Shown here piece by piece: positions 3,605 through 52,616 of a DNA stretch of 64,000 nucleotides; the first letter of the stretch is position 1, and the number at the start of each line of letters is the position of its first letter. This stretch comes from an uncultured Clostridia bacterium. Its GTDB lineage: Bacteria > Bacillota > Clostridia > TANB77 > CAG-508. The stretch is taken from positions 23,589-87,588 of the forward strand of contig CALXWM010000001.1 of NCBI GenBank assembly GCA_944392425.1, given 5' to 3'. The translations under genes and the position numbers were made by a program. The notes under the pieces are model-generated. The model searched no databases. It saw nothing but the letters and a program-made list of their open reading frames with translations, and was not told where the DNA came from.

Positions 3605-4135
3605 ATGTATATGAAAAAAATGTTTATTTTAAAGGTAGTTATAATTATTGCTATTATTTCTATATTGGCTATATTAATTGTTTTAAATTTTTCCACAGAA
3701 GTGGTAGAAAATGTGGAAAATGAAACTGTAATTGAGCCAGAAGAAGAGATTTCAGAAGAACAAATGAGGCAAACCGCAATCACATTATATTTTGAAGATA
3801 AAGAGAGTATGCAATTAGTAACAGAAGAGAAAAAAGTTGATGCCAAAGATTTGGTGGATAATCCATATTTATATATAGTAAATTTATTAATATTAGGACC
3901 AAATAGTGAGAATTTACAAAATCCTATACCTGAAGGAACAAAGGTTAATAAGGCAGAACTTAATGGAGATTGTGTTACTGTTGATTTATCCCAGGAATTT
4001 TTAAATAGTAGTGGAACAAATGCTATTTATGCTATAGTAAATTCTTTAACTGAATTAAAAGAAGTAAATAGCGTAAAGTTTTTAATTGATGGTGAAGAAC
4101 AAGATAATATGAAAGAGGCATTTGTGAGAAAGTAA
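3605..4135 (+). CDS. GerMN domain-containing membrane-anchored protein (sporulation/germination-associated)
   Basis: An N-terminal TM helix is followed by a GerMN-like region (TLYFEDKESMQL...VTVDLSQEF...VNSVKFLIDGEE). The RBS AAGGAAGGA lies upstream. Confidence 0.55.
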   Translation: MYMKKMFILKVVIIIAIISILAILIVLNFSTEVVENVENETVIEPEEEISEEQMRQTAITLYFEDKESMQLVTEEKKVDAKDLVDNPYLYIVNLLILGPNSENLQNPIPEGTKVNKAELNGDCVTVDLSQEFLNSSGTNAIYAIVNSLTELKEVNSVKFLIDGEEQDNMKEAFVRK

Positions 4136-4140
4136 AGTTT

Positions 4141-4329
4141 GTTACTATTCACAGCTATACATCTTAACTAAGTCTCCAATATACATTCTGCCGCATTTGC
4201 TTCGAGGTTTCGCTATTCGCGAAAACTCTCGCTCGCTGCCACTCCGCTCCTACGTCGTCTGCGTTCGCTGAAATGCTTTAGAACATATATTGGAGACTTT
4301 ATATAAATAATATAACTGAGAATAGTAAC
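4141..4329. repeat. Long imperfect palindromic element P1a (filled form) in the 3' UTR of the GerMN gene
   Basis: Outer inverted repeat GTTACTATTC (4141-4150) / GAATAGTAAC (4320-4329). Inner inverted repeat CTAAGTCTCCAATATACATTC (4168-4188) / GAACATATATTGGAGACTT (4281-4299). Core hairpin GAGGTTTCGC-TATTC-GCGAAAACTC. The core is shared with 27958-28103. Confidence 0.6.
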
Positions 4330-4340
4330 AAAATTTTAAT

Positions 4341-4379
4341 AAACCCTTAAATGTTATGATTTAAAGGGTTTATTTTTTA
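4341..4379 (+). terminator. Rho-independent terminator
   Basis: Hairpin AAACCCTTAAAT...TTAAAGGGTTT followed by a T-run. Confidence 0.55.
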
Positions 4380-4406
4380 CCAGAAATATGCTATACTAAA
4401 ACTATT

Positions 4407-5126
4407 ATGGAAAGAATAGATGATTTACAATATAAAGGTTTAAAAATAATTCAAAACACAGAAGGCTTTTGCTTTGGCATAGATAGTGTCTTACTTACAG
4501 AATTTGCAAAGGATATGAAAAAGCATAGTTCAATAGTAGATTTGGGAGCAGGCACAGGGATAATAGGAATATTACTTAGTAAAAAGGTAGAAGCTTCAAA
4601 AATAGTCGGTGTCGAAGTTCAAAATGATGTAGCCCAAATGGCTAAAAGAAGTGTTGAATTAAATAATCTACAAAATATAATGAGCATAGTTAATGAAGAT
4701 GTGCAAAATCTAAGTTTAGAAAAAAACTCTTTTGACTATGTAGTAACAAATCCACCATATAAGAAAAAAGGTACGGGAATTATAAATCAAAAAGATAAAC
4801 AAATAATTTCAAGGCATGAAACAACAGTAGATTTAGAGGGATGGATAAAGGTTGCAAGTAAATTATTAAAAGATAATGGTGCAATATATATGGTGCATAG
4901 ACCTGAAAGGCTTAATGAAATAATAGAAATATTAAGAAAATATAGGTTAGAACCAAAAAGAATAAGATTTGTATATCCTAAAATAGATAAAGATGCAAAT
5001 TTAGTATTAATAAAAGCTGTAAAATATGCAAATTCTTTCCTTAAAGTAGAGAAGCCATTAATAATATATAAAAATGACGGAAGTTATACAGATGAAATAT
5101 TAAAAATATATGAAGAGGGAAAATAA
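4407..5126 (+). CDS. Class I SAM-dependent methyltransferase, tRNA (adenine37-N6)-methyltransferase (TrmN6/YfiC)-like
   Basis: SAM motif I DLGAGTGIIGI. N6-adenine MTase motif IV NPPY (VTNPPYKKK). Confidence 0.6.
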   Translation: MERIDDLQYKGLKIIQNTEGFCFGIDSVLLTEFAKDMKKHSSIVDLGAGTGIIGILLSKKVEASKIVGVEVQNDVAQMAKRSVELNNLQNIMSIVNEDVQNLSLEKNSFDYVVTNPPYKKKGTGIINQKDKQIISRHETTVDLEGWIKVASKLLKDNGAIYMVHRPERLNEIIEILRKYRLEPKRIRFVYPKIDKDANLVLIKAVKYANSFLKVEKPLIIYKNDGSYTDEILKIYEEGK

Positions 5127-7002: not shown

Positions 7003-7508
7003 CATATATTTCAGCAATGATTATTCCTACCATTATCTCAATAATATTAATTGTTGGGTTAAAAGAAAAAAAGAATGTATATGATTTATTTATTAATGGA
7101 GCGAAAGATGGTATAAAAGTCGTATTAAAATTATTCCCTACTTTAATAGGAATTTTTTTAGCTATATATATGCTAAGAAGTTCTGGATTAATTGATTTTA
7201 TATGTAATATAATTTCTAATGTAACAAAAATATTTAGTATACCTAGTGAAATATTGCCATTAGCAATTATTAAGCCTATTTCAGGTAGTGGTTCAATGGC
7301 AATTGCTACAGAAATAATGGCTCATTTTGGCGTAGATAGTAATATAGGAAGAATTGCTGCAACAATTATGGGATCATCTGAAACTACTTTTTATGTAATA
7401 GCTTTATATATGAGTAGCGTAAAAGTTAAAGATGGAAGAAAAGTTGTAATTCCTGCCTTGCTTGCAGATTTAGCTAGTACAATTTCTGCAATTCTATTTT
7501 TAAGTTAA
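6999..7508 (+). CDS. spmB: Spore maturation protein B
   Basis: Overlaps spmA by 4 nt (ATGA coupling). Membrane protein matching the SpmB family. Confidence 0.75.
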   Translation: MTYISAMIIPTIISIILIVGLKEKKNVYDLFINGAKDGIKVVLKLFPTLIGIFLAIYMLRSSGLIDFICNIISNVTKIFSIPSEILPLAIIKPISGSGSMAIATEIMAHFGVDSNIGRIAATIMGSSETTFYVIALYMSSVKVKDGRKVVIPALLADLASTISAILFLS

Positions 7509-9863
7509 AAATTATTTTTATTATATTAAACTAATTAAAAAAATTAAATAGAAATAAAAAAATAAATAAAAAATAATTAAATAAATAAAAAAATTAAATA
7601 AATAAAAAAATAAATAAATAAATAATTAATTAAATAAAAAAATAATTAAATAAAATAAATAATTAAAATAAAAATATAAAAAATAGAAAAACAATTAATA
7701 ATAAATTAAATAAAATATAAAAAAGAAATAAAAATTTTTATTAATGTTAATATAAAAATAAATATGTATATTAAAAAAATATATATAAGATAAAAAACAT
7801 AAAGTTATTTACAAATTGACAAAACTAAATTTAAAATTTAAAAAATAATTTAAAAAATCTTCTGAATAAAAACTCTTAATTACTAGATAAAAATTTAAAT
7901 AAAAATCTAAAATTTATTAAGGAATAAAAGATTTTAAGAATTAACTTGTCTAAAAATAGCAAAACTATAAAACATTTAAATTGTATACATAAAGTAAAAA
8001 ATATATAACTTAATGAACTAAATTATAAAAATAAAATAATATTATTGTCTTTTTGATAAAGTGAGAAGTGTCGAAAAAAAGCAAAAAATGTACAAAAAAA
8101 TGATAAAAAACTTAAAAAATAAATTATAATGGGCAAAATAATAATAAAAAATTAAAAAGAATGAGTGACAAAAAGACAAGATTTAATTTGAATTAATTAT
8201 ATTAATAAAGCATAATTTATTAAAAATTGTAAAAATAATATGAAAAAAGGTAGATAATAATTGGAAAAAATATATTCAAAAGCCTAAGGAATTAGCTAAA
8301 AACAGATTTTTTGAATTTCTTAACAAATTATTTTAATAAGGATAAAATAAATTAAAAATAAATAATTATTTTGAAAAGGTAAAAAATATTTTATTAATAA
8401 TTGTTAAAATGACAAAATTAAATTTACAGTAAATTTAACCTTTTTAGTGTAGAAATATAGTACCAGGTTTAAATATGGAATAAAACTAAAATATTTTATT
8501 AGAATTAATAATTTATATTTTATAAAAAATATAAATTAAACAAAAATATAAATTAAACAAAAATATAAATTAAAGAAAAAAATAAATTAAATAAAAAATA
8601 AATTAAACAAAAAACTAAAATAAATTAAATAAAAAATAAATTAAATAAAAAATAATTAAATAAAATAAATTAAATAAAAATAAATAAAATAAAATAAAAT
8701 AAATTAATAAAATTAAATAAATATTAAATTAAAAATAAATAAAATATTCAGAACTAATTAAACATACCCAAGATATATTTTATTATAATCAAAAAATTGA
8801 TATAGAAGTAAATATATTAAATTAAAAAATTAATATCTATATAAAAAGATAAATATATTATAATATTTTATAAGTTTTAATAAATTAAATGTAAATAAAT
8901 GAATTTGTTTTACAAATTGACAAATCTCGAATTGGTAAAAAAATGAATTCCAGTAAAAATACTTTAAATTGATTTCAACAATTTTGAGTATAAATGATAC
9001 TATGGACTTCTTCAAATACTGAGGAAATAAGACTTTTGAGAAGAAGGTTTAATCTTCTTAAAAGAATTCAAACTTCAAAAAATGGTATACATAAACATTG
9101 AAACGACAATACTGTACAGAAGATGTACTTTTATCAATTGTCTTTTTGAATAAACGAAAAATAAGAAATATAATAAAAAAAGCTTTTTAAAAACTTAAAA
9201 AGCGCAAAAAAATTGAAAAAATGAAATAAAAATTTAATAGATAAAAAAATAATTGATTGGCAAAAAAGCAAAAAATAAAATTGAGTTAATTACATAGAGA
9301 TTAACAAAAAATCGAAATGGCGTCAATAATATGATTTAAAACTAGAGTGTTTTCTGAAAAAATATTTTATTTTTTGCTAAGGGATAGGCAAAAAATTGAA
9401 TTTTTTGCTTTGATGAAAGATTTTGGAACTTTAATTAAATTTATGTAGAATTTTTTAAAGAAAGATTGGAGTGATACAAAAATAAAAAGGACAGTTGTTA
9501 AATTGACAAGATAATGCTAACAACTGAAAATGGTAGAGTATGGCAAAAAAGATAGCTATATATAACACCAGATGGACAATTTAAAAATATAAAATTAAAA
9601 CTGATAATAAATAATAAAAAAATAAAATAATTAAAAAATAAAATAATAAAAAAATAAAATAATTAAAAAATAAAATAATTAAAAAAATAAAATAATTAAA
9701 AAAATAAAATAATAAAAAAATAAAATAATAAAAAAATAAAATAATTAAAAAATAAAATAATTAAATAAAATAAATTAAATTATAATAAAATTAATTAATA
9801 ATAAAAAAATAAACTTAATAAAAATATTAAGCTTATTTTTTAAATAATATTAATTTAATAAAA
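7509..9863. repeat. 2.35-kb non-coding AT-rich (>85% AT) tract with three low-complexity tandem arrays (about 7545-7700, 8520-8720, 9596-9790)
   Basis: No ORF of 60 aa or more on either strand. 17-19 bp units such as AAAATAAAATAATTAAAAA occur about 10 times at 9596-9790. Normal-complexity islands at 8890-9140 and 9290-9560 carry TTGACAA -35-like boxes. Confidence 0.7.
9805..9841. terminator. Bidirectional terminator downstream of the MBL-fold gene
   Basis: Hairpin AACTTAATA...TATTAAGCTT flanked by A/T runs. Confidence 0.45.
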
Positions 9864-10649
9864 TCATAAATTAATTACATTACTTGGTTTTAATCTGCTA
9901 GCAACACATAAAGATAATTCTTTATTTATTTTATTATTAATTATTTCTTCCATTACTGTTTTATAAGCAAGCTCTGGAAAATTATTTTCTTTACTTAAAT
10001 GTCCTAACATTATATTATTTACACCACTTGAAATTAATTTAATTATTGTATCACTAGCTTCCTGATTAGATAAATGTCCATTTGGACCAGCTATTCTTTG
10101 TTTTAAATAATAAGGATATCTTGAATATTTTAATATAGAGGGCTCATAATTTGATTCTAATAATAAAAAATTACTTCCTTCTAATTTTTTTATAATATTA
10201 TTTTCCATATGACCTATATCTGTTGCAACGCTAAGTTTTTTATCATTATTATAAATATTATATCCACAAGGTTCTGCTGCATCATGTGGAATATGAAAAG
10301 GATGAATATCTAAATCTCCTATTTCAAAATGGTCATCAGTATTAAATACTCTTTTATTTTTTTCATCTATTAAATTAGTTTGGTCTGGCATATTATCAAA
10401 AGTTTTTTGATTTGCATATACTGGAATATTATATTTTTTAGAAATTGCGCCTAATGTTTTTACATGATCGCTATGTTCATGTGTAACTATTATTGCATCT
10501 ATTTGAGATAAGTCTTTTCCTATGCTTTCTAAGCCTGTATTTATTTTCTTTTGACTTTCTCCACAATCTATTAACACATTTACGCTGTCTGTTCCAACAA
10601 AAGAGCAGTTACCAGAACTGCCACTATATAAATTACAAAAATTAAACAT
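9864..10649 (-). CDS. MBL-fold metallo-hydrolase (YycJ/WalJ-like)
   Basis: Metallo-beta-lactamase motif VTHEHSDH with downstream Asp/His ligands. Confidence 0.75.
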   Translation of the reverse strand: MFNFCNLYSGSSGNCSFVGTDSVNVLIDCGESQKKINTGLESIGKDLSQIDAIIVTHEHSDHVKTLGAISKKYNIPVYANQKTFDNMPDQTNLIDEKNKRVFNTDDHFEIGDLDIHPFHIPHDAAEPCGYNIYNNDKKLSVATDIGHMENNIIKKLEGSNFLLLESNYEPSILKYSRYPYYLKQRIAGPNGHLSNQEASDTIIKLISSGVNNIMLGHLSKENNFPELAYKTVMEEIINNKINKELSLCVASRLKPSNVINL

Positions 10650-14780: not shown

Positions 14781-14905
14781 GGTTGAAAAATAATTGCGTT
14801 TTGGCGTCGTTTAACTGCGCTGCGAAGGTCCTCAATGTGCAAAAAAGCACACTTCCGGCCTTCTTGCTTGTTAGCCTAGCCAAAATCACAATTCTTTTCC
14901 AACCT
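14781..14905. repeat. Palindromic element P2a (about 125 bp) between the UDPGP and phosphomutase genes
   Basis: About 90% identical to 29679-29804. Arms GGTTGAAAAATAATTGCGTTTTGGC / GCCAAAATCACAATTCTTTTCCAACC. Centre GTGCAAAAAAGCAC. Confidence 0.6.
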
Positions 14906-16768: not shown

Positions 16769-16844
16769 TGTCGAAAAAAGTCGACGAAAAATAATGATTA
16801 TTTATATAAAATTAATTGACAAGAAACAGAAATTAACATATAAT
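16769..16844 (+). promoter_or_regulatory. Conserved module: tandem Spo0A-box-like TGTCGAAAAAAGTCGACGAAAAA plus sigma-A promoter for the Rpn gene
   Basis: TGTCGAA 16769-16775 and GTCGACG 16780-16786. TTGACA 16816-16821, 17 bp, TATAAT 16839-16844. The same 23-mer and geometry occur at 33021-33096. Confidence 0.5.
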
Positions 16845-17052
16845 GAGGACATAATTTAAAGCTTTAAATTAAAAATATTTTATCATGAAATTTTTTATAT
16901 AATTAAATTGATTCAAAATTTAAATCTTAAAAATTTCAATAAAAAATTTTATTAAATGTATAACCTATATTTGAGGTTTTTTTTATAATTCTTGTTAAAA
17001 ATAAGATTTAAATCACGAATTCTCACAGAAAATTATAATGGAGGATTATTAT

Positions 17053-17997
17053 ATGGCAGAAAAAGAAGAAAGTATAAAATTATTAAAACCAAAGATAGAC
17101 ATAGTTTTTCAAAGCTTATTTAGCAAGAAAAATGAAAAAATAACAAAAGCATTTGCAGAAGCAATGTTAGATGAAAAAGTAAAAAAAATAACAATAAACG
17201 ATGATAAAGAATTATTTAGAGAAAAACCAGAAGATAAACTTGGGATATTAGACCTAGAATTAGATATAAATGACAGAGAAAAGGTAGATATAGAAATACA
17301 ATTAGTGGATAGATCAAATATACAGGAAAGGTTATTGTTTTATTTTTCAAAATTGTATTATAACGAAGTAAAAAAAGGGGATGACTATAAAAAGGCTAAA
17401 AGAGTAGTAATGGTAGCGATACTAGATTACGATTTTAACCTAACAAAAGAAATTAAAAGAATGGAAACAAAATGGAAACTTAGAGAAGAAAATGCAAAAG
17501 ACCTCGTCTTGACAGACAAAATTGAAATAGATATAATAGAACTATCTAAAGTAAGGGCTGAATATGAAAAAAATAAGCAAAACAAAAAGGCACAATGGGC
17601 ATTGTTCATAAACGACCCTAATACTAAGGAGGTCAAAGAAATTATGAAGGAAAATGAAGATATAGAAGAAGCAGTAGTAACAGTACATAAAATGACAGAA
17701 GATGAAAAAATGAGAAGACTAGCAGATTTAAGAGAAAAAGCCATATTGGATGAAAAGGCAATTAGACGTAAAGGCTATGAAGATGGACATGAAGCTGGTT
17801 ACGAAGATGGCCGAACAGAAGGCCGAGCAGAAGGTCGAGCAGAAGGTCGCGCAGAAGGACTGGAAAAAGGAAGAACAGAAGGAAAAGCAGAAGAAAGAAA
17901 AGCAATATTAAATAATTTAAAGAAAATGAAATTATCAACAGAAGAAATTTGCAAAATTTTAAATATAACAACAGAAGAATTAGAAAAAATGGAATAG
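17053..17997 (+). CDS. Rpn-family recombination-promoting nuclease / putative transposase (YhgA-like PD-(D/E)XK) with C-terminal DUF4351-like tail
   Basis: N-terminal PD-(D/E)XK core (ILDLELD...DIEIQ). C-terminus carries EGRAEGRAEGRAEG repeats and a terminal STEEICKILNITTEELEKM helix typical of this family. RBS GGAGGA 7 nt upstream. Confidence 0.75.
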   Translation: MAEKEESIKLLKPKIDIVFQSLFSKKNEKITKAFAEAMLDEKVKKITINDDKELFREKPEDKLGILDLELDINDREKVDIEIQLVDRSNIQERLLFYFSKLYYNEVKKGDDYKKAKRVVMVAILDYDFNLTKEIKRMETKWKLREENAKDLVLTDKIEIDIIELSKVRAEYEKNKQNKKAQWALFINDPNTKEVKEIMKENEDIEEAVVTVHKMTEDEKMRRLADLREKAILDEKAIRRKGYEDGHEAGYEDGRTEGRAEGRAEGRAEGLEKGRTEGKAEERKAILNNLKKMKLSTEEICKILNITTEELEKME

Positions 17998-25895: not shown

Positions 25896-26498
25896 ATGTC
25901 ATCATATTATTCACCATCAATAGAAAAACTAATAGAAGCATTTCAAAAACTACCAAGTATAGGAGAAAAATCAGCTGTAAGACTTGCATTTTATATTTTA
26001 AATTCTAGTGAAGAAGAAACGAATAAATTTATACAAAGCATACAAGACGCAAAGAAAAATTTGAAGTTTTGTTCAAAATGCTTTAATATATCTGATACTG
26101 ACCCATGTCCAATATGCTCAGACCCAAAACGTGACCAAAGTAAAATTTGTGTTGTTGAAGATGTTAAAGATGTGGTAGCAATGGAAAAAACTCATGAATT
26201 TAAAGGGCTTTACCATGTACTTCATGGGTCTATTTCGCCAATGGATGGAATAGGGCCGGATGATATTAAAATTAAAGAATTGCTAGCTAGGCTTATGGAT
26301 GGAACAGTAAAAGAAGTAATTTTAGCAACAAACCCAAGAGTTGAAGGAGAAGCAACTTCGATGTATATTGCAAAACTTATTAAGCCAATGGGAATAAAAG
26401 TTACAAGAATAGCTCACGGTATTCCAGTTGGAGGAGATATTGAGTATACAGATGAATTTACTTTAGGAAGAGCTCTTGAAGGAAGAGTGGATTTATAA
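25896..26498 (+). CDS. recR: Recombination protein RecR
   Basis: HhH motif, C4 zinc finger [16 protein letters not shown], Toprim domain. Confidence 0.9.
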
Positions 26499-26509
26499 AA
26501 TTAAAATAG

Positions 26510-26612
26510 CTACAGTTCAGTAATTGTTATTTAACTAAAAAAGTTTCAATATACATTCCAGAACATATATTGAAACTTTTATATTAGATTATATATCTTT
26601 ACTGAACTGTAT
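26510..26612. repeat. Nested palindromic element P1c (empty form of the P1 hairpin) between convergent recR and the glycosyltransferase gene
   Basis: Inner palindrome AAAAGTTTCAATATACATTCC/AGAACATATATTGAAACTTTT at 26538-26580 matches the inner arms of P1a (4168-4188 / 4281-4299) but without the ~95-bp core. Outer inverted repeat CTACAGTTCAGTAA / TTACTGAACTGTAT. Confidence 0.55.
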
Positions 26613-26617
26613 TTATT

Positions 26618-27742
26618 TTAAGTTTTGTCATTCATTATAATTCTACAAATATCCCTTGTAGAATTCTTTTTTGCCATTAATTTAGAGCGTATTTTCATAT
26701 GCTTTATTTGCTCAGGATTTTCTAAAAGTTCTTTAATTGCTTCGTTTGGATTTTCAGTTTTCCTTATCCAAACGGCAACACCTTTTTTCTCTAAAAATTC
26801 TGCATTTTCTATTTCTTGACCAGGTATTGGGTTAATAACCACAATAGGTAGTCCAGAAGCTAAAGACTCTGTTATTGTTAAGCCACCTGGCTTAGTAACA
26901 ACTAAATCAGAAATGCTCATTAATTCAGGAACTTCATTTGTATAGCCATAAACTTGAACATTTGGATTTTCTCCAACTAGTTCTTCAAATCTAATCTGCA
27001 TTTTTTCATTTTTACCAGAAATAGCAATTATTTGATATTCATCGTGAATATTATCTATAAAGGCTTTTAATATTTTTAGTGTTTTTTCTTTGCCTAAACC
27101 AAATTCACCACCACCAAAAAATAAAATAGTTTTTTTGTTATAATCTAAATCAAAAGAAGCTTTAATTTCTTTTCTATTAAAATGCTCTAAGAACCTGTTT
27201 GAAAGAGGAATACCAGTTGCATGTATTTTGCTAGCAGGTATACCTTTTGCAATTATATCTTTTTTCATACCTTCATGAGAAACAAAAATATGGTCTATAT
27301 ATTTACTACCAACTAGCCATTGGTCATGTGACGCAAAATCTGTCATAACACTAGCTAAAACACAATTTGTTTTACCTTTTTCTTTTAAATAAGCAGTCAT
27401 TTGACTTGCAAAAGGATGGGTGGAAATAACAATGTCTGGTTTAAATTCCTCAAACAATTTGTTTAATTTAATAGACATGAATTTATTAGCACCACTACTT
27501 ATATGTGACATTGCACCTTTTTGAGAATGATCATAAATTTCTCCCCAAGCCCAAGGTGCTTTTTTTGCCATTTCTTTATATGCAAAAGTTGTAAGTGTAT
27601 TTAATCCTTTATTTATATATTCTACACAATCAATCATTTTTGTTTTAACATTTGGATAATTTTCATCTAAATATTGTTTTATAGATTTGGCAGCAGATAA
27701 ATGACCACCACCATAAGATGCATAAAAAATTAAAATCTTCAT
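26618..27742 (-). CDS. Diacylglycerol glycosyltransferase (MGDG-synthase / UgtP-like, GT28 family)
   Basis: N-terminal MGDG_synth region (ILIFYASYGGGH) and a C-terminal GT28 domain (GGLTITESLASGLPIV). Confidence 0.7.
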   Translation of the reverse strand: MKILIFYASYGGGHLSAAKSIKQYLDENYPNVKTKMIDCVEYINKGLNTLTTFAYKEMAKKAPWAWGEIYDHSQKGAMSHISSGANKFMSIKLNKLFEEFKPDIVISTHPFASQMTAYLKEKGKTNCVLASVMTDFASHDQWLVGSKYIDHIFVSHEGMKKDIIAKGIPASKIHATGIPLSNRFLEHFNRKEIKASFDLDYNKKTILFFGGGEFGLGKEKTLKILKAFIDNIHDEYQIIAISGKNEKMQIRFEELVGENPNVQVYGYTNEVPELMSISDLVVTKPGGLTITESLASGLPIVVINPIPGQEIENAEFLEKKGVAVWIRKTENPNEAIKELLENPEQIKHMKIRSKLMAKKNSTRDICRIIMNDKT

Positions 27743-27957
27743 TATGTTTGAACCTTTCAATAAAATCTTTATGACAGTTCAGTAAAGTAAATTCTACAAA
27801 AACAAAACTGTAATGAATTTCAATAAGATTTGTGAATTATTTACTGATAAAATCTTTATACCACAATATATGAAATAAATCAATTGAATATTTTATAAAA
27901 TTTTGGAAAAAATACAATAAAAAGTTACAATTCATAGTCACATTTTTTTAATACAGG

Positions 27958-28103
27958 TTGCATTATATATTTTTCCGCTTTTGCTTCGAGGTTTCACTAT
28001 TCGTGAAAACTCTCGCATGCTCACTTCGGCAGGCATACTTCACTAAAATTAAAAAAGTTTTCTATGCCTCAGGTCGCTAAAAGCTCCAAATATATATTGC
28101 AAT
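27958..28103. repeat. Palindromic element P1b (filled form) in the divergent region upstream of ypeB
   Basis: Core TTTGCTTCGAGGTTTCACTATTCGTGAAAACTCTCGC, same as P1a with CGC/GCG changed to CAC/GTG on both hairpin arms (compensatory). Terminal inverted repeat TTGCATTATATAT / ATATATATTGCAA. Confidence 0.6.
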
Positions 28104-28154
28104 TTTATAATAAATTTAAATTGCTATGAATTTTAACAATATGTGAGGTATTGT

Positions 28155-29678: not shown

Positions 29679-29804
29679 TAAAGTTTAAAAATAATTGCGT
29701 TTTGGCGTCGTTGAACTACGCTACGAAAATCCTCAATGTGCCTAAAAGCACACCTCCGGTTTTCTTGCTTGTTCGCCTAGCCAAAAGCACAATTCTTTTT
29801 AAAC
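29679..29804. repeat. Palindromic element P2b between ypeB and murF
   Basis: Copy of 14781-14905 with paired substitutions: GGTTG/CAACC becomes GTTTA/TAAAC, and GAAGG/CCTTC becomes GAAAA/TTTTC. Confidence 0.6.
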
Positions 29805-33020: not shown

Positions 33021-33096
33021 TGTCGAAAAAAGTCGACGAAAAAGTGAAATAAATTTGTCAAAATATATTGACATAAAAAATTAAAAAATGTAAAAT
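33021..33096 (+). promoter_or_regulatory. Second copy of the Spo0A-box-like tandem motif plus sigma-A promoter module
   Basis: TGTCGAAAAAAGTCGACGAAAAA at 33021-33043. TTGACA 33068-33073, 17 bp, TGTAAAAT 33089-33096. Confidence 0.5.
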
Positions 33097-33409: not shown

Positions 33410-34225
33410 ATGTCAAATATTAAAGTAAACAAAGTTGACGCACCACTTTTAGATGATTATGTCTTTAAGCGTACATTTACAAGAGATGATCCAAATGGAA
33501 TACTTAAAGATTTTTTAGAAGCAGTATTAAAAATAAAAATACATAATGTACAAGTATTGAATGCAGAAATACCAAAGGACTTGTTAGATGAAAGAGGAAG
33601 CGTTTTAGATGTTAGAGCGGAGTTAGACAATAATAGAATTGTAGATATCGAGATGCAAGTAAATGATGAAGGCAACATAGATAAACGCAGTTCAGTGTAT
33701 ATGAGTAAAAATATTTCGACTCAAATAAAAGTTAGAGAAGATTATAAAGGCTTAAAACCATCAATAGTGATAAACATTTTAAATTTTAATAGATATAAGA
33801 GAAATAGCTACCACTCAGTGGCACATATGAAATTTGAAAAAACAAGTCAAGAAGAATATGTAGACTTAGGATACAAAAAGGAAGAAGAAAATGCAACAGA
33901 TGTGCTAGAAATGCACTTTATAGAATTGCCAAAATTTTTAAAGAAAAATCCTGAAGCAAAGACTAGCCTAGAGCAATGGCTATGGCTGATAGCAGGAAGG
34001 GAGGACAAAGTAAAAATGTCAAAGTTAGATAATCCAGAAGTAAAAAAAGCGATGAAGTTGGTAGATGAAATAATGTCAGACCCAAAAGAAAGAGAAATAA
34101 TCGAAGCAAGAGCAATGGCAAAGTTTAACTATGACACAGGAGTAGCATATGCCAAAGAAACTGGCAAAAAAGAGCGGAATTCAAGAAAACAAAAAAGAAA
34201 TGGCCAAAAGGATGAAACAACTTAA
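33410..34225 (+). CDS. Rpn-family PD-(D/E)XK nuclease paralog. Its C-terminal helix continues in the +1 frame to 34298 (frameshifted).
   Basis: N-region matches the 17053 paralog (DYVFKRTF...IVDIEMQ). After the stop at 34223-34225, the alternate frame reads AKRMKQLKMADDQICQILNISTEELKKLIND, matching the conserved family C-terminus. A poly-A run at 34156-34162 is the likely slip site. Confidence 0.65.
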   Translation: MSNIKVNKVDAPLLDDYVFKRTFTRDDPNGILKDFLEAVLKIKIHNVQVLNAEIPKDLLDERGSVLDVRAELDNNRIVDIEMQVNDEGNIDKRSSVYMSKNISTQIKVREDYKGLKPSIVINILNFNRYKRNSYHSVAHMKFEKTSQEEYVDLGYKKEEENATDVLEMHFIELPKFLKKNPEAKTSLEQWLWLIAGREDKVKMSKLDNPEVKKAMKLVDEIMSDPKEREIIEARAMAKFNYDTGVAYAKETGKKERNSRKQKRNGQKDETT

Positions 34226-38640: not shown

Positions 38641-40755
38641 ATGGGAAGTTCGTTTAGTGAATTTATGAAAAAGAATTTAAAATATATAATATTTGCGTTA
38701 GTATTATGGGCAATAGGCGAAATCTTTTTAGTTGCGCCTATTGCTTTAAGCATTAGCCAGAGCTATGTTGATGGATTATTCGATATAGCTCTTTTTATCG
38801 AAGCTTTAGTTGAAAATATAGTATCATTCTCATCAATTGGTAAAGTATTCACAAGTGAGGCAATTGGAGCATTTGGTAGCTCAACTTTGTGGTATACATT
38901 AATTGTTGCTTTGGCAGTAGGTATAGGAGCGTTTAAAAATAGAAAAAAGACAAAATATCAAAATATAGAACATGGATCAAGCGATTGGTGCCAAGGTGGA
39001 GAACAATATAGGGTTTTGAGTAGAAATTCTGGGTTACTTTTAGCTCAAAATCATTATTTACCACTAAATAAATTAGGAAATATAAACGTATTAATTGTCG
39101 GTGGTTCTGGTTCTGGTAAATCTTCAAGTTACACTATTCCAAATGCACATCAAATGCTTGGTTCATATGTATTTACAGACCCTAAGGGTGAAATATATGA
39201 TACAACAGCAGGCTTTTTACAGAAAAATGGATATGAAATAAAAATATTAAATTTAGTTAATCCAACAAGTAGTGATAGTTACAACCCATTACAGCACATT
39301 CAAAATGAAATAGATGTAGACGTTATAGCAAATACAATAGTAAAAGGACAGAAGGCAGAAGGAACGGCAACAGACCCATATTGGGACAATATGGCTGAAA
39401 TTTTGCTTAAAGCTCTTATTTATTATATTATTGCTACAAGACCACCAGAAGAACAAAACTTAGCAAGCTGTGCAGAACTAGTTAGAGCTGCAAATAATAA
39501 TGGTGGAAGCAACTTACTTACAGAACTCATGAGCCAGTTACCTTATGACCATCCAGCAAGAATGAACTACAAATCTGTTGAAATAGCATCAGAAAAAACA
39601 TATAGCTCAATTTTAAGTACATTGCAATCAAAACTTGGTAAATTTGACTCAAAGGAAATAGCAGATGTAACTTCAACAAATACAATAGATTTTGTTGACA
39701 TAGCAACTAAGAAAACAGCTTTATATGTTGTATCATCAGATACACATAGTGCATATGACTTTTTACTTACAATATTCTTCTCACAAATGATACAACAGTT
39801 ATATGATTTTGCAGATAAAAATGGTGGTAAATTACCAATTCGAACGTTCTTTATACTTGATGAGTTTGCAAACATAGGTCAAGTACCAGACTTCGATAAA
39901 AAGATATCAACAAGTAGAAGTAGAGGAATTTCATTTAGTGTTATATTACAGAACTTAGATCAATTAAAAGCAATATATGAAAAGTCTTATGAAACAATTA
40001 TAGGTAACTGTGATACTCACGTATTTTTGGGAAGTAACTCGTATGCAACAGTTGAATATTTTTCAAAGGAATTGGGAGAGAAAACAATTACTCATAATAG
40101 CAAATCGGTTAATAGAAATAATGTAGATGTAAGAACAGGATTTAGTGAATCAGATCAAATTATGGCAAGAGCTTTAATGACACCTGATGAACTTAGAAGA
40201 ATGGATAATAATGATTGTATTATCTTTGAAAAAGGATTAAAACCAATAAAAGCTAAGAAGTTTTGGTATTTTAAAACTCCAATGCTTAAAGATTTTAATG
40301 CAAATAGAATTGACCATAATGATTATGAATGTCAAGAAAGAGGAAACTGGAGAAAATACAATCCATATAATCCTTATACGGGTAATGAGAATGTAAATGA
40401 GCAAAGCAAAGATGTTAAGATTGAATCTTTGGATGACCTGTTTGAAGATGCTAAACCAGTAGAGCCAGTAAGTGATGTTCAGCAAAATTCTGGAATTCAA
40501 GGATTGCAAGGCACATCAGCAGTTTCAAATAACGGGTTTAATGCAGATGTAATTCCAAATGCAGGACCAAGTTTTGCATCAGTACCAAATAATCAGCCTT
40601 TGAATAATGGTTCAAGTGTTGAGAATCAGCCAACTAACATTCTTCCGGGATTTGAAGATGAAGCTACAAAACAAATGCAAGATACATCAGATGATGAAAT
40701 AGATATTCAAAAAGAATTAGAAGCAAAATTTGACGAATTGTTTGGAAGTGATTAA
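38641..40755 (+). CDS. Type IV secretion coupling protein (VirD4/TraG/TraD family)
   Basis: Two N-terminal TM helices, Walker A GGSGSGKSS, and the family signature FILDEFANIG...SFSVILQNLDQL. Acidic disordered C-tail. Confidence 0.8.
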   Translation: MGSSFSEFMKKNLKYIIFALVLWAIGEIFLVAPIALSISQSYVDGLFDIALFIEALVENIVSFSSIGKVFTSEAIGAFGSSTLWYTLIVALAVGIGAFKNRKKTKYQNIEHGSSDWCQGGEQYRVLSRNSGLLLAQNHYLPLNKLGNINVLIVGGSGSGKSSSYTIPNAHQMLGSYVFTDPKGEIYDTTAGFLQKNGYEIKILNLVNPTSSDSYNPLQHIQNEIDVDVIANTIVKGQKAEGTATDPYWDNMAEILLKALIYYIIATRPPEEQNLASCAELVRAANNNGGSNLLTELMSQLPYDHPARMNYKSVEIASEKTYSSILSTLQSKLGKFDSKEIADVTSTNTIDFVDIATKKTALYVVSSDTHSAYDFLLTIFFSQMIQQLYDFADKNGGKLPIRTFFILDEFANIGQVPDFDKKISTSRSRGISFSVILQNLDQLKAIYEKSYETIIGNCDTHVFLGSNSYATVEYFSKELGEKTITHNSKSVNRNNVDVRTGFSESDQIMARALMTPDELRRMDNNDCIIFEKGLKPIKAKKFWYFKTPMLKDFNANRIDHNDYECQERGNWRKYNPYNPYTGNENVNEQSKDVKIESLDDLFEDAKPVEPVSDVQQNSGIQGLQGTSAVSNNGFNADVIPNAGPSFASVPNNQPLNNGSSVENQPTNILPGFEDEATKQMQDTSDDEIDIQKELEAKFDELFGSD

Positions 40756-42302: not shown

Positions 42303-42431
42303 TTCTAATAAATTTTTAAAAGTTACAATTCACAGTTAGATTTTTTATAAATATAATATGAACCGTGAATTGCAATATGCAGGAGCTTTTATAAAGAAAT
42401 AATTATAAAATTAATTGAAAGGATGAACCAA

Positions 42432-43355: not shown

Positions 43356-43418
43356 TTTTACGTTTGGGACGGTTCTTTTTGTAAAATATTTTACGATGGG
43401 GACGGACCAAAACGAAAA
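43356..43418. repeat. GGGACGG-loop hairpins H2 and H3 in the fabG leader
   Basis: TTTTAC-GTTTGGGACGGTTCTTTTT-GTAAAA (43356-43386) and TTTTAC-GATGGGGACGGACCAAAAC-GAAAA (43389-43418). Confidence 0.6.
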
Positions 43419-43437
43419 AAAAGAAAGGAATTATAAA

Positions 43438-44175: not shown

Positions 44176-44176
44176 A

Positions 44177-44290
44177 TTTTACGTTGGGGACGGTCCTTTT
44201 TGTAAAATATTTTACGATGGGGACGGACCAAAATGTAAAATAATACTAAAAATTTGATTTTTAAGAAAAAGGACCGTCCCAAACGTAAAA
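44177..44290. repeat. GGGACGG-loop hairpins H4 and H5 plus inverted partial copy H6 in the fabF leader
   Basis: H4 44177-44207, H5 44210-44240, and reverse copy AAAAAGGACCGTCCCAAACGTAAAA 44266-44290. 44181-44201 and 44266-44290 form a 21-bp inverted repeat with 1 mismatch. Confidence 0.6.
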
Positions 44291-46596: not shown

Positions 46597-46646
46597 GCTG
46601 TGAATTGCAACTAAAATTGAATTAAATTTTAAAAGAAGGAGTTTAA

Positions 46647-47975
46647 ATGATACGTAAAATATTAATTGCTAATAGAGGAGAAATTGCAGTAAGAATAATC
46701 AGAGCTTGTAGAGAAATGGGAATTGCAACAGTTGCTGTTTATTCTGAAGCAGACAAAAATGCTTTGCATGTGAAATTAGCTGACCAAGCTGTATGTATTG
46801 GTCCAGCTCCATCACAAAAAAGTTATTTAAATGTAAAAGCTATATTAGAGGCTTGTTGCCTTACAGGTGCAGATAGTATTCATCCTGGATATGGCTTTTT
46901 ATCTGAAAATGTTTCATTTGCAAAAATGTGTAGTGAGATGGGCATTAATTATATAGGACCTTCATATGAGTTAATTGAGCTAATGGGAAACAAATCTAAA
47001 GCAAAAGAAACAATGAAGAAAGCTGGTGTTCCAGTTGTTGAAGGCTCAGAAGGAAATGTAGAATCACTTCAAGGAGCAAAAGATATTGCCAATAAAATTG
47101 GCTACCCAGTAATAATGAAAGCCGTAAGTGGTGGTGGCGGAAAAGGTATAAGAATAGCAAATAGTGAAGAAGAACTTATTAGATATTATGATGTAATAAG
47201 AGCCGAAGCCAAATCAGCATTTAATGATGACAGTATCTATATAGAAAAATACATAAAAAATCCTAGACACATAGAAATTCAAGTAATTGCAGATAAACAC
47301 GGAAATGTAGCACATTTAGGTGATAGAGACTGTACAGTACAAAGAAAAAATCAAAAAATGCTTGAAGAGAGTCCATCAGATTACATAGATGAAAAATTAA
47401 GGCAAAAGATGGAAAAAGTTTCAGTAAAAGCAATAGAAAAAATAGGATACACAAATGCTGGAACAATAGAATATTTGGTAGACAAAGAAGGCAATTTTTA
47501 CTTCATGGAAATGAATACTAGACTACAAGTCGAGCATCCTGTAACAGAGTTGGTTACTGGTGTTGACTTAGTTAAAGAACAAATAAATATAGCATCAGGA
47601 AAAAAACTTTCAAAAGAAGTAATGAATTTACACATAAAAGGTCATAGTATTGAATGTAGAATAAATGCTGAAAATCCAGATAAAAACTTTATGCCTTGTC
47701 CAGGAAAAATAACAGGACTTCATATACCAGGAGGAAATGGCATAAGAGTGGATTCAGCAATTTATCAAGACTATATAATACCACCAAATTATGACTCAAT
47801 GATAGCAAAACTAATTGTTCATGGTAAAGACCGTGAAGAATGTATTAATAAAATGAAGAGTGCATTAGGTGAATTTGTAATAGAAGGTATAACAACAAAT
47901 ATTGATTTCTTGTACAAAATACTAGAGAATCCTGAGTTTATAAAGAATGATTATGATACATCTTTTATAAAATAA
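46647..47975 (+). CDS. accC: Acetyl-CoA carboxylase biotin carboxylase subunit
   Basis: ATP-grasp biotin carboxylase (KILIANRGEIAVRIIRA, EMNTRLQVEHPVTE). Confidence 0.9.
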   Translation: MIRKILIANRGEIAVRIIRACREMGIATVAVYSEADKNALHVKLADQAVCIGPAPSQKSYLNVKAILEACCLTGADSIHPGYGFLSENVSFAKMCSEMGINYIGPSYELIELMGNKSKAKETMKKAGVPVVEGSEGNVESLQGAKDIANKIGYPVIMKAVSGGGGKGIRIANSEEELIRYYDVIRAEAKSAFNDDSIYIEKYIKNPRHIEIQVIADKHGNVAHLGDRDCTVQRKNQKMLEESPSDYIDEKLRQKMEKVSVKAIEKIGYTNAGTIEYLVDKEGNFYFMEMNTRLQVEHPVTELVTGVDLVKEQINIASGKKLSKEVMNLHIKGHSIECRINAENPDKNFMPCPGKITGLHIPGGNGIRVDSAIYQDYIIPPNYDSMIAKLIVHGKDREECINKMKSALGEFVIEGITTNIDFLYKILENPEFIKNDYDTSFIK

Positions 47976-48046
47976 AGTTATTTTCTACTTAAGCTTCAAT
48001 ATATGTTCTGAAGCTTTTAAAAACTATTATAATGAGAGGAAAAACG

Positions 48047-49699: not shown

Positions 49700-50450
49700 G
49701 GTTATTTTAGTAATGGGATTAAGAAATAAGTGGAGTATTTCTTGGGGTGTAATAAGAAAAGCTTATGAAAATGGAGCAAAAGTATTATATACATATAATG
49801 ATGGTGACCAAGAAAAAATGGATAAACTTACAGAAGAATTAAAAGGTGCTAAAGGTTACAAATGTGATGTTTCAAACGATGAAGAAATAGAAAAATGTTT
49901 TTCACAAATTAAGAAAGATTTTGGAAAATTAGATGGAATATTACATAGTATTGCTCATGCATATACAGATGATTTAAGAAATGATTTCATATTAACTTCA
50001 AGAGATGGATATTCACATGCAATGGATGTAAGTAGTTATTCATTAGTAGCAATTTGTAGATATGCAATGCAATTAGATATGTTAAATGAGAATGCAAGTA
50101 TAGTAGCTCTTACATACTATGGTTCAGAAAAATCAATAGAAGGATATAATGTTATGGGAGCTGCAAAAGCAGCATTAGAGGCTTCTGTAAGATATTTAGC
50201 AAAAGACTTAGGTAAAAAAGGTATGAGAATAAATACTATATCTGCAGGACCTATCAAAACTTTATCAGCAAAAGGTATAAAAGACTTTAATTCAATACTA
50301 GATGTTGTTGAAGATAGAGCACCATTACATAGAAATGTAACAATAGATGATGTTGGTAATGTTGCAACATTCTTATTTAGTGATATGGCATCAGCTATAA
50401 CTGGTGAAATAATACATGTTGATTCAGGATTCTCATCAGTAGGTGTGTAA
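49683..50450 (+). CDS. fabI: Enoyl-ACP reductase (NADH), FabI type
   Basis: [22 protein letters not shown] matches the FabI N-terminus. Tyr/Lys catalytic region present. RBS AAGGGTG before 49683. Confidence 0.85.
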
Positions 50451-50470
50451 TATCAATAGTGTGTCAATAG

Positions 50471-50532
50471 TGTCAATAGGGACGCTCATTTTTGACATAA
50501 AAATTGTCAATGGGGACGGTTCTATTTGACAA
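50471..50532. repeat. GGGACG-loop hairpins H7 and H8 just past fabI, preceded by TCAATAGTG direct repeats
   Basis: TGTCAA-TAGGGACGCTCATTT-TTGACA (50471-50497) and TTGTCAA-TGGGGACGGTTCTAT-TTGACAA (50504-50532). TCAATAGTG occurs 2.5 times at 50452-50478. Confidence 0.6.
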
Positions 50533-50558
50533 TATTAATAAAAATTAATAACTAAAAA

Positions 50559-50620
50559 AGCATCTGAATGAACTCAATTGGAAAAAGTAGAGTTCAAATA
50601 GGTGCTTTTTATTTTTTTTA
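50559..50620 (+). terminator. Terminator of the fab/acc operon
   Basis: Imperfect hairpin AGCATCTGAATGAACTC...GAGTTCAAATAGGTGCT followed by TTTTTATTTTTTTT. Confidence 0.5.
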
Positions 50621-51575
50621 TTTAATAGAAAAAAATAATTAAATAAAAATAATTAAATAAAAATAATTAAATAAATAATTAATTAAAAACAATAAAAAAA
50701 TTAAAATAATAAAAAAATAAATAAAAAAAATAAAAAATAAAATAATTAAAAATAAATAATTAATAAAAATAAATAATTAATAAAAATAAATAATTAATAA
50801 TAAATAAATTAAATTATTAAATATAAAAATTAAATAAGAAAATTAAAGAATCTTACTAATTAAAATAATAATTAATAAATAGAAAATATTTAAAATAAAA
50901 AATTAAAAATTAATAATTAATTTTTTAATCTATAAAAAAGAAATTGTCAAATAGTCTAATTACTTTTTAAAAAATACATTAATTTAAATTAATAATTAAA
51001 AGGAAAAATAAATTAATTACAAAATAAAACAAATAATTGTGTACAACAAAAAAATTAGAAAAATCAAAAATACTTAAGGAATTAACCATTTGAAAGGATT
51101 TTTTTTATAAAAAACTCACAAAAGTATAAACAAAAATTGTAAACATAATATTGAAAAATGGAATAAAAATATATAAAAACCATTAGTAAAAATAATAAGA
51201 AAAATCAATAAAAAAGAATAAAATATCAGATGTGACTAAAAGACAAAATTTAAAATTAATGTTTATAATAAAAAATAATATTAATTTTATATAATAAAGC
51301 TCTTGCGAAAATCTGTTTGATATGATATAAATATATATAATTAGTTAATTAAATAATAAAGATAAATTAATTTATAAAAAATAATAAATTAAAAGATAAA
51401 TAATAAAAAATAAATAAATTAAAAATAAATAAATTAAAAATAAATAAATTAAGAATAAATAAATTATAATAAATAAATAATAATTAAATTAGTTAATAAA
51501 ATAATAAATTATTAATTTTAAAAAGCTAAAATAAATTAATTATTAATAAAAAAATAATTAAAGAAAGGATAAATA
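50621..51575. repeat. ~1-kb non-coding AT-rich tract with tandem arrays (for example 50621-50830, 51340-51540)
   Basis: No ORFs. 14-17 bp units AAAAATAATTAAAT and AAATAAATAAATTAAAA repeated 3-4 times. Same motif family as 7509-9863 and 52617-52730. Confidence 0.7.
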
Positions 51576-52616
51576 ATGAAATTTGTACATATAGCCGATG
51601 TTCATTTAGATACTCCATTTAAAACAATTAGTGATAGAGCAGATATAGGAGTAGAGAGAAGATTAGAGCAAAGAAATGCTTTAAAAAAAGTTATAGATTA
51701 TATTAAAGAAAATAATATTGAATATTTATTTATTAGTGGAGACTTATACGATCAAGAATATGTTAGAGAAAGCAGTATAAGATTTTTAAATGATTTATTT
51801 AGTGAAATACCAAATACAAAAATATTTATTGCACCAGGAAATCATGATCCTTATATAAAAAATTCTTTTTACTTTACTTTTTTATGGAACAGCAATGTAA
51901 AGATATTCACAAATATTGTAGAAAAAGTGGAAAACAATGATGTAAATATTTATGGATTTGGGTTTAATAATTTTGAAATGAATGAAAATCAAATAAAAGA
52001 TATTATTTTAGACGAACCAGAAAAAATAAATATATTAATTACACATGGAGATTTAGGTGAATCTAAATATAATCATATGAATTTAAATGAAATAAAATCA
52101 AAAGGTTTTGATTATGTTGCACTTGGTCATATTCACAAAAGAGATGATAGTACAAATATTGTTTATCCTGGCTCATTAATTTCTTTAGGTTTTGATGAAT
52201 TAGGTGAACATGGTATGATTGTTGGAGAAATTATTGATAAAAAATTAAATAAAGAATTTGTCAAAGTTGATGACAGAGAATTTGTTGAATTTGAATTAGA
52301 TGTTAGCAATATTATATCTGAAGAAGAATTAATAGAAAAAATAAATAACATTAATGAAGAAAATAAATTATATAAAATTATTTTAATAGGTTATAGAAAT
52401 TTCCCAATAAATATTGATATTAAATTAATAAATAAAAATATTATTAAAATAAAAGATAATACAAAATTAAAAATTGATTTTAAAGAAAATAATAATACAT
52501 TAAAAGGATTATTTATTAAAAAATTAAATGAAAGAAAAAATAATAATTTAATTGATGAAAAAACTTTTGAGAATATTTTAGAAATTGCTGAGCAGGCTTT
52601 GGGAAAAAATAAATAA
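51576..52616 (+). CDS. SbcD/Mre11-family metallophosphoesterase nuclease (YhaO-like)
   Basis: Calcineurin-like motifs HIADVHLD, GDLYD, GNHD, HGD, GHIH. Confidence 0.75.
   Translation: MKFVHIADVHLDTPFKTISDRADIGVERRLEQRNALKKVIDYIKENNIEYLFISGDLYDQEYVRESSIRFLNDLFSEIPNTKIFIAPGNHDPYIKNSFYFTFLWNSNVKIFTNIVEKVENNDVNIYGFGFNNFEMNENQIKDIILDEPEKINILITHGDLGESKYNHMNLNEIKSKGFDYVALGHIHKRDDSTNIVYPGSLISLGFDELGEHGMIVGEIIDKKLNKEFVKVDDREFVEFELDVSNIISEEELIEKINNINEENKLYKIILIGYRNFPINIDIKLINKNIIKIKDNTKLKIDFKENNNTLKGLFIKKLNERKNNNLIDEKTFENILEIAEQALGKNK

Follow-up and report, generated by a model that had tools for sequence, protein, structure and literature searches.

P1, a low-copy family of nested palindromic DNA repeats in uncultured Clostridia that varies by inversion and at its hairpin tip

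INTRODUCTION

Do the long imperfect palindromes that lie between genes in a clostridial genome give rise to structured RNA, or are they mobile DNA? The question is raised by a 64,000-nt stretch from an uncultured Clostridia bacterium (assembly GCA_944392425.1, contig CALXWM010000001.1, positions 23,589 to 87,588 of the forward strand), which is referred to here as the window and numbered from its first nucleotide. An earlier note, made from the letters of the window, described three related long palindromes, two of them with a common core that forms a hairpin with compensating changes, and proposed either a structured RNA or an element resembling a miniature transposable element with inverted repeats (MITE). 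We find that the three hairpins are copies of one low-copy, non-coding repeat family, which we name P1, and that P1 is a previously undescribed small mobile DNA repeat family of uncultured gut-type Clostridia. The reading that we favor, with a probability of roughly 0.6, is that P1 is a non-autonomous nested palindrome of the MITE or repetitive extragenic palindrome (REP) kind with replication-driven instability; its inversions, tip insertions and deletions, larger deletions and arm corrections would then be replication errors driven by the hairpin.

RESULTS

Three hairpins in the window are copies of one dispersed repeat

All three palindromes are present where they had been described, and the full elements are slightly larger than noted. 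Locus 1 is a full element of 189 bp with a core of type A (4141-4329, plus strand), located between the stop codon (4135) of a gene encoding a GerMN (Germane domain) protein and a terminator hairpin at 4338-4374 that is followed by a T-run; it lies, as proposed, in the 3' untranslated region (UTR) upstream of the terminator, and its palindrome reaches 4134-4336. Locus 2, upstream of ypeB, had been placed at 27958-28103; there is a palindrome there, but it is only the inner part of a full element with a type C core at 27924-28137 (plus strand). Locus 3, between the convergent recR and glycosyltransferase genes (26511-26611, plus strand), is core-less. RNA folding energies gave z-scores of -7.7, -6.5 and -9.2 for loci 1, 2 and 3, respectively, and at each locus none of 200 dinucleotide shuffles was as stable. 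A 37-nt core pattern matches the window exactly twice, at 4196 and 27980, where 0.00 matches are expected, in keeping with a core common to loci 1 and 2. Within the hairpin GAGGTTTCRC-TATTC-GYGAAAACTC, the two copies differ by the paired swap of G-C to A-T that the earlier note described. By nhmmer alone, the inner arms of locus 1 and those of locus 3 are only weakly alike (E=0.17), yet the likeness reflects real homology, because in other strains locus 3 carries a family-type core between the same arms.

A genome search for the core, suggested in the earlier note, recovered further copies in six Clostridia metagenome-assembled genomes (MAGs) and in metagenome contigs. The core-hairpin scan, in which the loop and two stem positions were left free, covered 185,579 species genomes and gave 22 true matches; these fall at 20 loci, and every one belongs to one of six uncultured Clostridia/Bacillota MAGs (27-34% GC); the remaining matches were unrelated chance hits in GC-rich genomes. 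A metagenome collection added nine contigs, three new loci among them, and an nhmmer profile search added one more full copy, whose 5' module differs, together with several copies that are partial or consist of a solo arm. The total is about 30 copies in the six MAGs and the metagenome contigs, at approximately 16 distinct, dispersed and unrelated loci, with 3 to 6 detected copies per MAG, which makes P1 a low-copy family. The copies share no conserved open reading frame (ORF), and type B cores contain stop codons. BLASTN of the element found no match in 72,556 plasmids or 50,697 phage records, and a scan of viral contigs returned a single chance match only. The host range of P1 is restricted to a clade of AT-rich, spore-forming, uncultured Clostridia with a GC content of roughly 27-30%.

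Copies sit mostly 0-40 nt past stop codons, often ahead of a terminator. The core is sense to the upstream gene in about 10 of 14 copies and antisense in 4, one of which lies between fusA and tuf. The neighbors are housekeeping genes, including those for EF-G/EF-Tu, PNPase, RNase R and SDRs.

P1 consists of nested palindromic layers around a conserved core

Elements are approximately 181-215 bp long and are ordered, from the outside to the inside, as terminal repeat, AT-rich spacer, variable palindromic stretch, inner repeat and core. The terminal inverted repeats (14 nt, GTTACWATTCACAG) are found at both ends of at least 10 copies with 0-3 mismatches. Immediately outside them, two copies have perfect target duplications, one of 9 bp (AAAAACTTT; contig L023, 4336-4543) and one of 8 bp (CAAAATAA; contig L062); in three further copies the flanking duplication matches at 6 of 8 positions, and in the rest it is degraded. 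The spacers (15-20 nt) are AT-rich and non-complementary and confer polarity on the element, and the short variable stretch between spacer and inner repeat is still palindromic. The inner repeat of 12 nt, CAATATACATTC / GAACATATATTG, has a conserved CA/AC mismatch. At the hairpin tip stands the core, of 92-121 bp and 42-55% GC, always with more C than G on the same strand. Cores come in five sequence types, A to E, which share their termini (TTCCRCATTT ... TCGCTGAAATGYTCC) and polarity but differ in their interiors. Type A is invariant except for a hypervariable triplet (TAC, GGA, GAA, AAA or TGAA; columns 110-113 of Alignment A1, window 4249-4251), at the position of which types B to E have a variable hairpin of 30-45 nt.

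At locus 1 the left terminal repeat GTTACTATTCACAG (4141-4154, plus strand) holds an inversion breakpoint, and the right terminal repeat (4316-4329, minus strand; reverse complement GTTACTATTCTCAG) carries a single-nucleotide polymorphism (SNP) haplotype linked to orientation. The left inner arm AAGTCTCCAATATACATTC (4170-4188, plus strand) includes the 12-nt inner repeat and is followed by the type A core (4189-4280, plus strand), with more C than G, a hairpin at 4204-4228 and the triplet TAC, and then by the right inner arm GAACATATATTGGAGACTT (4281-4299, plus strand); GC is about 54% over 4189-4282. Locus 2 has terminal repeats at 27924-27937 and 28124-28137, inner arms at 27958-27972 and 28088-28102, and a hairpin at 27988-28012. 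Locus 3 has outer repeats at 26511-26523 and 26599-26611 and an inner palindrome at 26536-26583, and its palindrome reaches 26497-26625; the core of other strains is positioned between 26558 and 26559.

Identity steps abruptly along the element. Across 12 non-orthologous copies, the inner repeat and core are 92-98% identical and the sequence outside is 52-66% identical; at orthologous sites the inner block is ~96% identical and the flanks are 61-83% identical. The inner arms together with the core are the most conserved block of the repeat, so that the idea that the arms are merely a target into which a core inserts is too simple.

Beyond the outer repeats, the target duplications and the inversion polymorphism described below, none of which had been noted previously, the window holds three additional traces of the family. 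A mini form at 42322-42376 (plus strand) consists of terminal repeats and spacer remnants only, without inner arms or core. A short inner-arm remnant, AAGCTTCAATATATGTTCTGAAGCTT, lies at 47975-48020 (plus strand; nhmmer E=2.7e-4). A solo sequence resembling the terminal repeat, GTTGCAATTCACAG, lies directly 3' of a stop codon at 46598-46611 (minus strand), with one mismatch to the consensus; it could be a remnant or a chance match.

Two copies outside the window have unusual edges. In contig L010 (1630-1845) the palindrome runs 13 nt past both terminal repeats (GAGCCAACATATT / AATATGTTGGCTC), which is either a fourth nested layer or the outcome of insertion into a pre-existing palindrome. In L023 (7627-7798) and L027 (737-908) a divergent gene adjoins the element, and its ribosome-binding site and start codon fall inside the region of left spacer and terminal repeat; co-option of the element is one possible account, overwriting by the gene start another.

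Other assignments for the core were considered and rejected. A 24-codon frame starting with TTG crosses the type A core with the triplet in frame; it has no ribosome-binding site and is broken in types B to E. An integron attC site, a Xer/dif-like site and a circle junction at the variable triplet were each judged by eye to be unfit in motif order and symmetry.

Strains differ at the window loci by inversion, core content, deletion and arm correction

Population alleles of the window loci were obtained from assemblies retrieved through exact-protein look-ups; L-numbers designate the contigs compared, and the orientation variation described is between strains only. Look-ups with FabD and with GerMN (taken from the most upstream start codon) returned no contigs, and those with FabH and AccC returned few. 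Four kinds of natural change were found: inversion of the interior, gain or loss of the core, flanked by TTC repeats, exactly at the tip, deletion across short direct repeats, and tandem changes after which the arms pair perfectly.

Locus 3 shows all four. Among 29 contigs, 13 have the core-less forward form of the window (four of them with a 6-nt tip deletion), 8 are core-less with the interior inverted, 4 are filled in forward orientation by a 116-bp type E core, 3 are filled and inverted, and one (L110) is a mini form in which the inner hairpin is deleted between ATAAAA repeats, the same kind of allele as the mini form at 42322-42376. In the filled alleles the core lies exactly at the hairpin tip; the junction reads ACATTC[TTCC...GTTC]CAGAAC when filled and ACATTCCAGAAC when empty. 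The filled inverted allele of L095 and one of the filled forward alleles are exact inversions of each other and have identical cores. The core lies within the segment that inverts; to arrive at all four combinations therefore takes two inversions or more, or else insertions in both orientations. The empty inverted alleles read GAACATAT where simple inversion predicts GAATGTAT, a tandem 2-nt change that converts the CA/AC mismatch to perfect pairing.

The earlier note had proposed that locus 3 is an empty site and locus 1 a filled one, and that orthologous regions should be compared for presence or absence of the core. Such variation is confirmed: strains of a single species differ in core content even where the local haplotypes are almost the same (window versus L097). 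Flanking haplotypes at locus 3 are too mosaic to polarize the event, which may have been an insertion into a virgin hairpin or else a deletion.

At locus 1, two contigs that are collinear with the window and 97.9% (L024) and 97.4% (L022) identical to it over kilobases have an interior that is the exact reverse complement between the terminal repeats, with the breakpoints inside those repeats. Orientation is split 9 to 7 among 16 contigs, the 7 being inverted relative to the window. One inverted contig, L037, has no mismatch to the window in the 800 nt downstream of the element.

Locus 2 has the same orientation in every strain that carries the element. In L117 it is reduced through a deletion between TATATAT repeats. 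Other deletions in the family were found in L099 and L034. Whole elements are also present or absent: a sister lineage (L081-L090) has no element at locus 1, where the spacer is just 71 nt; L100, L122 and L123 have none at locus 2, and L122 and L123 none at locus 3; related species have no element at any of the three loci.

P1 thus has the features of a MITE, namely terminal repeats, target duplications, small non-coding dispersed copies and presence or absence at orthologous sites. This half of the original proposal stands, and the structured-RNA half is disfavored on the evidence that follows.

Paired changes in the arms point to palindrome dynamics

Covariation in the family is significant. 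Seven pairs vary, with double changes in 16 cells against one single-side change, and none of 500 shuffles reached the observed value. The double changes are mostly swaps between GC and UA or AU, all within the arms, and G-U intermediates are almost absent. Within type A the core hairpin does not vary; in types D and E it is wholly replaced. Across the family it contributes one covarying pair. No Rfam family matched anywhere in the window at the gathering threshold, and a permissive search gave chance-level matches only on locus 1 (E >= 0.3) and none on cores of types B, D and E.

Published studies describe how a template switch between two short, imperfect inverted repeats homogenizes the arms, inverts the spacer and mimics compensatory substitution (PMC8604942, PMC8794818). 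We favor symmetry at the DNA level because the double swaps are transversions, G-U intermediates are few, copies occur in both orientations, and either orientation and loss of the core are tolerated. The paired changes are real, and they point to DNA-level palindrome dynamics rather than to a structured RNA.

Genes and signals in and around the copies

The region 3900-4500, which includes all of the locus 1 element, was scanned for promoters and terminators, and nothing resembling either was found inside the element. When 152 flanking ORFs were compared all against all, only orthologous sets and housekeeping paralogues emerged, and no copy has a recombinase or transposase gene beside it. Nor was a tyrosine or serine recombinase seen among the 27 window ORFs scanned, in annotated flanks, or among ORFs recurring near other copies.

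Several genes of the window are related to mobile DNA. Its only insertion sequence is a complete ISAs1-family element (55778-57155) with a transposase gene at 55833-57038 on the minus strand (domains DDE_Tnp_1_assoc and DDE_Tnp_1) and 34-bp terminal repeats beginning with CAGGATAAAGAC. An 11-mer from these repeats, GATAAAGACAT, is found as well inside the variable insert that some type B cores carry (L009, L062). The ISAs1 element was rejected as a parent of P1, since the terminal repeats are unrelated and the 11-mer is all that is common with the type B cores. Two genes encode putative transposases of the PD-(D/E)XK type (PF12784, Rpn/YhgA-like; 17038-17997 and 33410-34225), and an identical 23-nt motif, TGTCGAAAAAAGTCGACGAAAAA, lies upstream of both (16769-16791 and 33021-33043). 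A gene for a type IV secretion coupling protein (TraG/VirD4-like; 38641-40755) stands beside DnaJ-like and unannotated ORFs, and the region may be the remnant of an integrated conjugative element. An SbcD-like gene (Metallophos; 51576-52616) and an SbcC-like gene (AAA_27; 52731-54665) form a pair; SbcCD is a nuclease that cleaves DNA hairpins in other bacteria, and its presence is notable in a genome rich in long palindromes. No evidence links any of these mobile-DNA-related genes, the SbcCD-like pair included, to P1.

Other repeats in the window

A second palindromic family, unrelated to P1, is represented at 14782-14903, after a UDPGP gene, and at 29683-29804, between ypeB and murC. The two copies are 88% identical, have a GC-rich center and differ by a paired swap of AAAA/TTTT to AAGG/CCTT; a related copy is found in L021. 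A third family consists of REP-like hairpin units of ~32 nt (TTTTACGTTGGGGACGGTCCTTTTTGTAAAAT), direct and inverted, in spacers between fatty-acid synthesis genes (43356-43419 and 44176-44290). Two regions, 7474-9864 and 50450-51576, have no ORF of at least 120 amino acids, contain 56-58% A on the plus strand, and consist of degenerate repeats with a period of 16-17 nt (e.g., AAAATATAAATTAAAC).

DISCUSSION

A literature search found no description of the P1 family and no paper that joins a MITE with an inverton. P1 is a new family and a variant within the MITE/REP-like kind, distinguished by three nested layers, a near-invariant GC-rich tip block in a 27% GC genome, and an in-situ inversion that segregates in nature. 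One close parallel is with Correia elements of Neisseria (CREE/NEMIS). These too are non-coding and intergenic, have a conserved core between terminal inverted repeats, occur both full-length and with internal deletions, vary in presence among strains and are co-transcribed as long hairpins; their length is roughly 100-160 bp (PMC2649163, PMC3184786). The two families have no sequence similarity, and P1 has few copies per MAG, whereas Correia elements number in the hundreds. Unlike Correia elements, P1 has three nested palindrome layers and a GC-rich tip module in an AT-rich genome, and no outward promoter or IHF site was detected in the scan of locus 1. The Correia target duplication is TA, compared with 8-9 bp in P1, and we know of no description of in-situ inversion for Correia elements.

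REP sequences and their assemblies, bacterial interspersed mosaic elements (BIMEs) and REPINs with the Y1 transposase RAYT, resemble P1 as intergenic palindromes past stop codons, in which a hairpin doublet is the mobile unit, hairpin symmetry shapes evolution, and insertion sequences find targets (PMC3333891, PMC3116915, PMC2817692, PMC1525189). REPs are 20-40 nt long, high-copy and GC-rich, with a conserved 5' tetranucleotide and an RAYT gene, whereas P1 is ~200 bp, low-copy, and has terminal repeats with target duplications. No RAYT gene was seen in the flanks of the copies examined, and P1 is not a REP/REPIN-RAYT system. Insertion of IS1397 and ISKpn1 into the loops of palindromic units, and of the IS110-family ISPpu9 into REPs, parallels the P1 core as a foreign segment placed precisely inside a repeated hairpin with a very short junction repeat (PMC1525189, PMC12288879). 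In contrast to these insertion sequences, the P1 core is 92-121 bp, encodes no protein, has no known parent insertion sequence, and may be deleted rather than inserted. The duplication made by IS1397 is 3-4 bp. Compared with elements of the IS200/IS605 type, the P1 core follows TTC and ends in TTC, has an empty allele with an exact junction, and contains an imperfect hairpin 15 nt from its 5' end; it has no clear 3' hairpin, has short terminal complementarity, and no TnpA gene was seen.

Known invertons (fimS of E. coli, the flgB and cwpV switches of Clostridioides difficile, and the Mpi-controlled promoters of Bacteroides) are, like P1, segments of ~150-230 bp between short inverted repeats that occur in both orientations in nature. 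They differ in having a regulatory payload beside a regulated gene and a site-specific recombinase, neither of which was found for P1. Template-switch (quasi-palindrome) mutation also inverts spacers between short imperfect repeats and leaves clustered changes that perfect the arms (PMC8604942, PMC8794818). P1 departs from typical cases in its long spacers (79-194 bp) and in the recurrence of events across a dispersed bacterial repeat family, and for P1 the mechanism is inferred.

On the reading that we favor, the element would have been inserted by a transposase acting in trans. A hairpin or cruciform may form during replication and promote template switching or slippage between closely spaced inverted or direct repeats, so that the rearrangements would be consequences at the DNA level, neither a programmed switch nor the result of selection on an RNA fold. 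The elements would be co-transcribed as hairpins in 3' UTRs or intergenic regions and may incidentally affect mRNA ends. Several observations weigh against this account. The neutral decay of a selfish repeat does not predict the high identity of the inner block, whether among non-orthologous (92-98%) or orthologous (~96%) copies; selection, gene conversion or separate mobility of the block is therefore required. Inversion occurs at two of the three window loci, on repeats of 13-14 nt, and all mapped breakpoints lie in the outer repeats and none in the equally long inner repeats; an enzyme that recognizes the terminal repeats could account for this. At locus 1, orientation is almost fully linked to SNPs in the terminator-side repeat, and therefore a single old inversion plus recombination could explain that locus. 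No autonomous element with P1 terminal repeats was found in the ~350 kb of sequence examined.

Separate mobility of the block has the best claim among the alternatives, and we hold it as a tentative possibility, at somewhat less than even odds. The GC-rich core, or the inner repeat plus core, would be a tiny mobile module that homes to the single-stranded loop of the palindrome and excises precisely, so that core-less hairpins would be true empty targets; a site-specific recombinase or a single-strand transposase (HUH/IS200-IS605-like or IS110-like) would be responsible, with TTC as the crossover or cleavage triplet. This is compatible with a MITE-like outer element. It would account for the abrupt change in conservation where the inner repeat begins (0.92-0.98 inside versus 0.52-0.66 outside) and for a block more conserved than its flanks even at orthologous sites. 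The orthologous copies in L015a and L034 have cores that are identical but for the triplet, which differs at all 3 nt and looks like a replacement rather than point mutation. The exact filled and empty junctions on nearly identical haplotypes at locus 3 fit as well, as do five core types with common termini and the same polarity, and insertion sequences that target REP hairpins are documented (PMC1525189, PMC12288879). Against it, no core was found outside a hairpin context or attached to a transposase gene in the genome and metagenome scans or among flanking ORFs. The core-less allele of locus 2 and the mini allele of locus 3 are demonstrable slippage deletions that removed more than the core, slippage would equally leave a 3-nt direct repeat at the hairpin base, and constant core polarity is also expected from common descent of a composite element. 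A bolder version, which we regard as improbable, has the whole block of ~116-145 bp as a new miniature site-specific mobile or invertible module that inserts into and excises from the palindrome loop through a 3-nt TTC crossover and is flipped between the outer repeats by a dedicated enzyme, for which the candidates in the window include the two Rpn-like PD-(D/E)XK putative transposases; the near-invariance of the core would then reflect a recognition or guide function, not recent spread. As a further alternative, a dedicated site-specific recombinase could act on the outer repeats in a programmed inverton, giving phase variation at several loci. The exactness of the inversions, with breakpoints in homologous 13-14 nt outer repeats at two loci, agrees with this, as do the four-state pattern of locus 3 with its need for at least two independent inversions or insertions both ways, the frequency of both orientations, and the identity over 800 nt of L037 and the window despite opposite orientations. 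Against it, the invertible segment contains no promoter-like or terminator-like site, locus 1 sits in a 3' UTR before a terminator, and locus 3 lies between convergent genes with no downstream gene to regulate. No such recombinase was found among the ORFs surveyed, and one could be encoded elsewhere in the genome; locus 2 never varies in orientation, and the strong linkage of orientation to lineage and repeat SNPs suggests rare events; the same loci also show other signs of general palindrome instability. We consider a programmed inverton unlikely.

If the element were a structured RNA, whether cis-acting or small, a long stem would close over a conserved core and a variable hairpin, and selection on the fold would have maintained the paired changes; it might be a 3' UTR stabilizer, an RNase III substrate or a C/U-rich regulatory RNA. 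The very low fold z-scores, significant covariation of the arms and conservation of the core are what such an RNA would display, and the usual position just past stop codons, often before a terminator, means that most copies are transcribed, in about 10 of 14 cases with the core in sense orientation. The absence of an Rfam match even at permissive thresholds speaks against it, and so do the four antisense copies, including the one between fusA and tuf, and the tolerance of a single locus in the population for either orientation and for complete loss of the core. G-U intermediates, as noted, are almost lacking, in the commoner orientation an RNA stem would lose strength through the CA/AC mismatch that is conserved on the core strand, and the core hairpin, with its one covarying pair, is replaced in types D and E. 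We judge this reading, too, unlikely. The inversions and filled or empty states might also be artefacts of inverted repeats in short-read metagenome assembly graphs, and indeed L037-L040 end inside the element and locus 2 is interrupted by an N-gap in scaffold L098. Exact inverted matches reach 14 nt at most, below usual assembly k-mers, and orientation-specific junction k-mers must therefore exist in the reads; the alleles recur over independent samples, studies and assemblers (contig names NODE_, k87_/k119_, scaffold_, Logan), and orientation covaries with nearby SNPs. We give artefact almost no weight. The non-autonomous palindrome with replication-driven instability is left as the reading that we prefer.

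P1 provides a natural, population-level record of how long quasi-palindromes evolve, with inversion, tip insertions and deletions, slippage deletions and arm correction preserved as alleles of single loci. It also offers a caution for the discovery of RNA motifs, because P1 displays significant covariation and extreme fold z-scores although good evidence for an RNA function is lacking. P1 elements break short-read assemblies and can mislead searches for invertons. If it is true that the GC-rich block is separately mobile or driven by an enzyme, it would be a new hairpin-loop-homing element, and it could point to the responsible enzyme in an uncultured clade of gut Clostridium.

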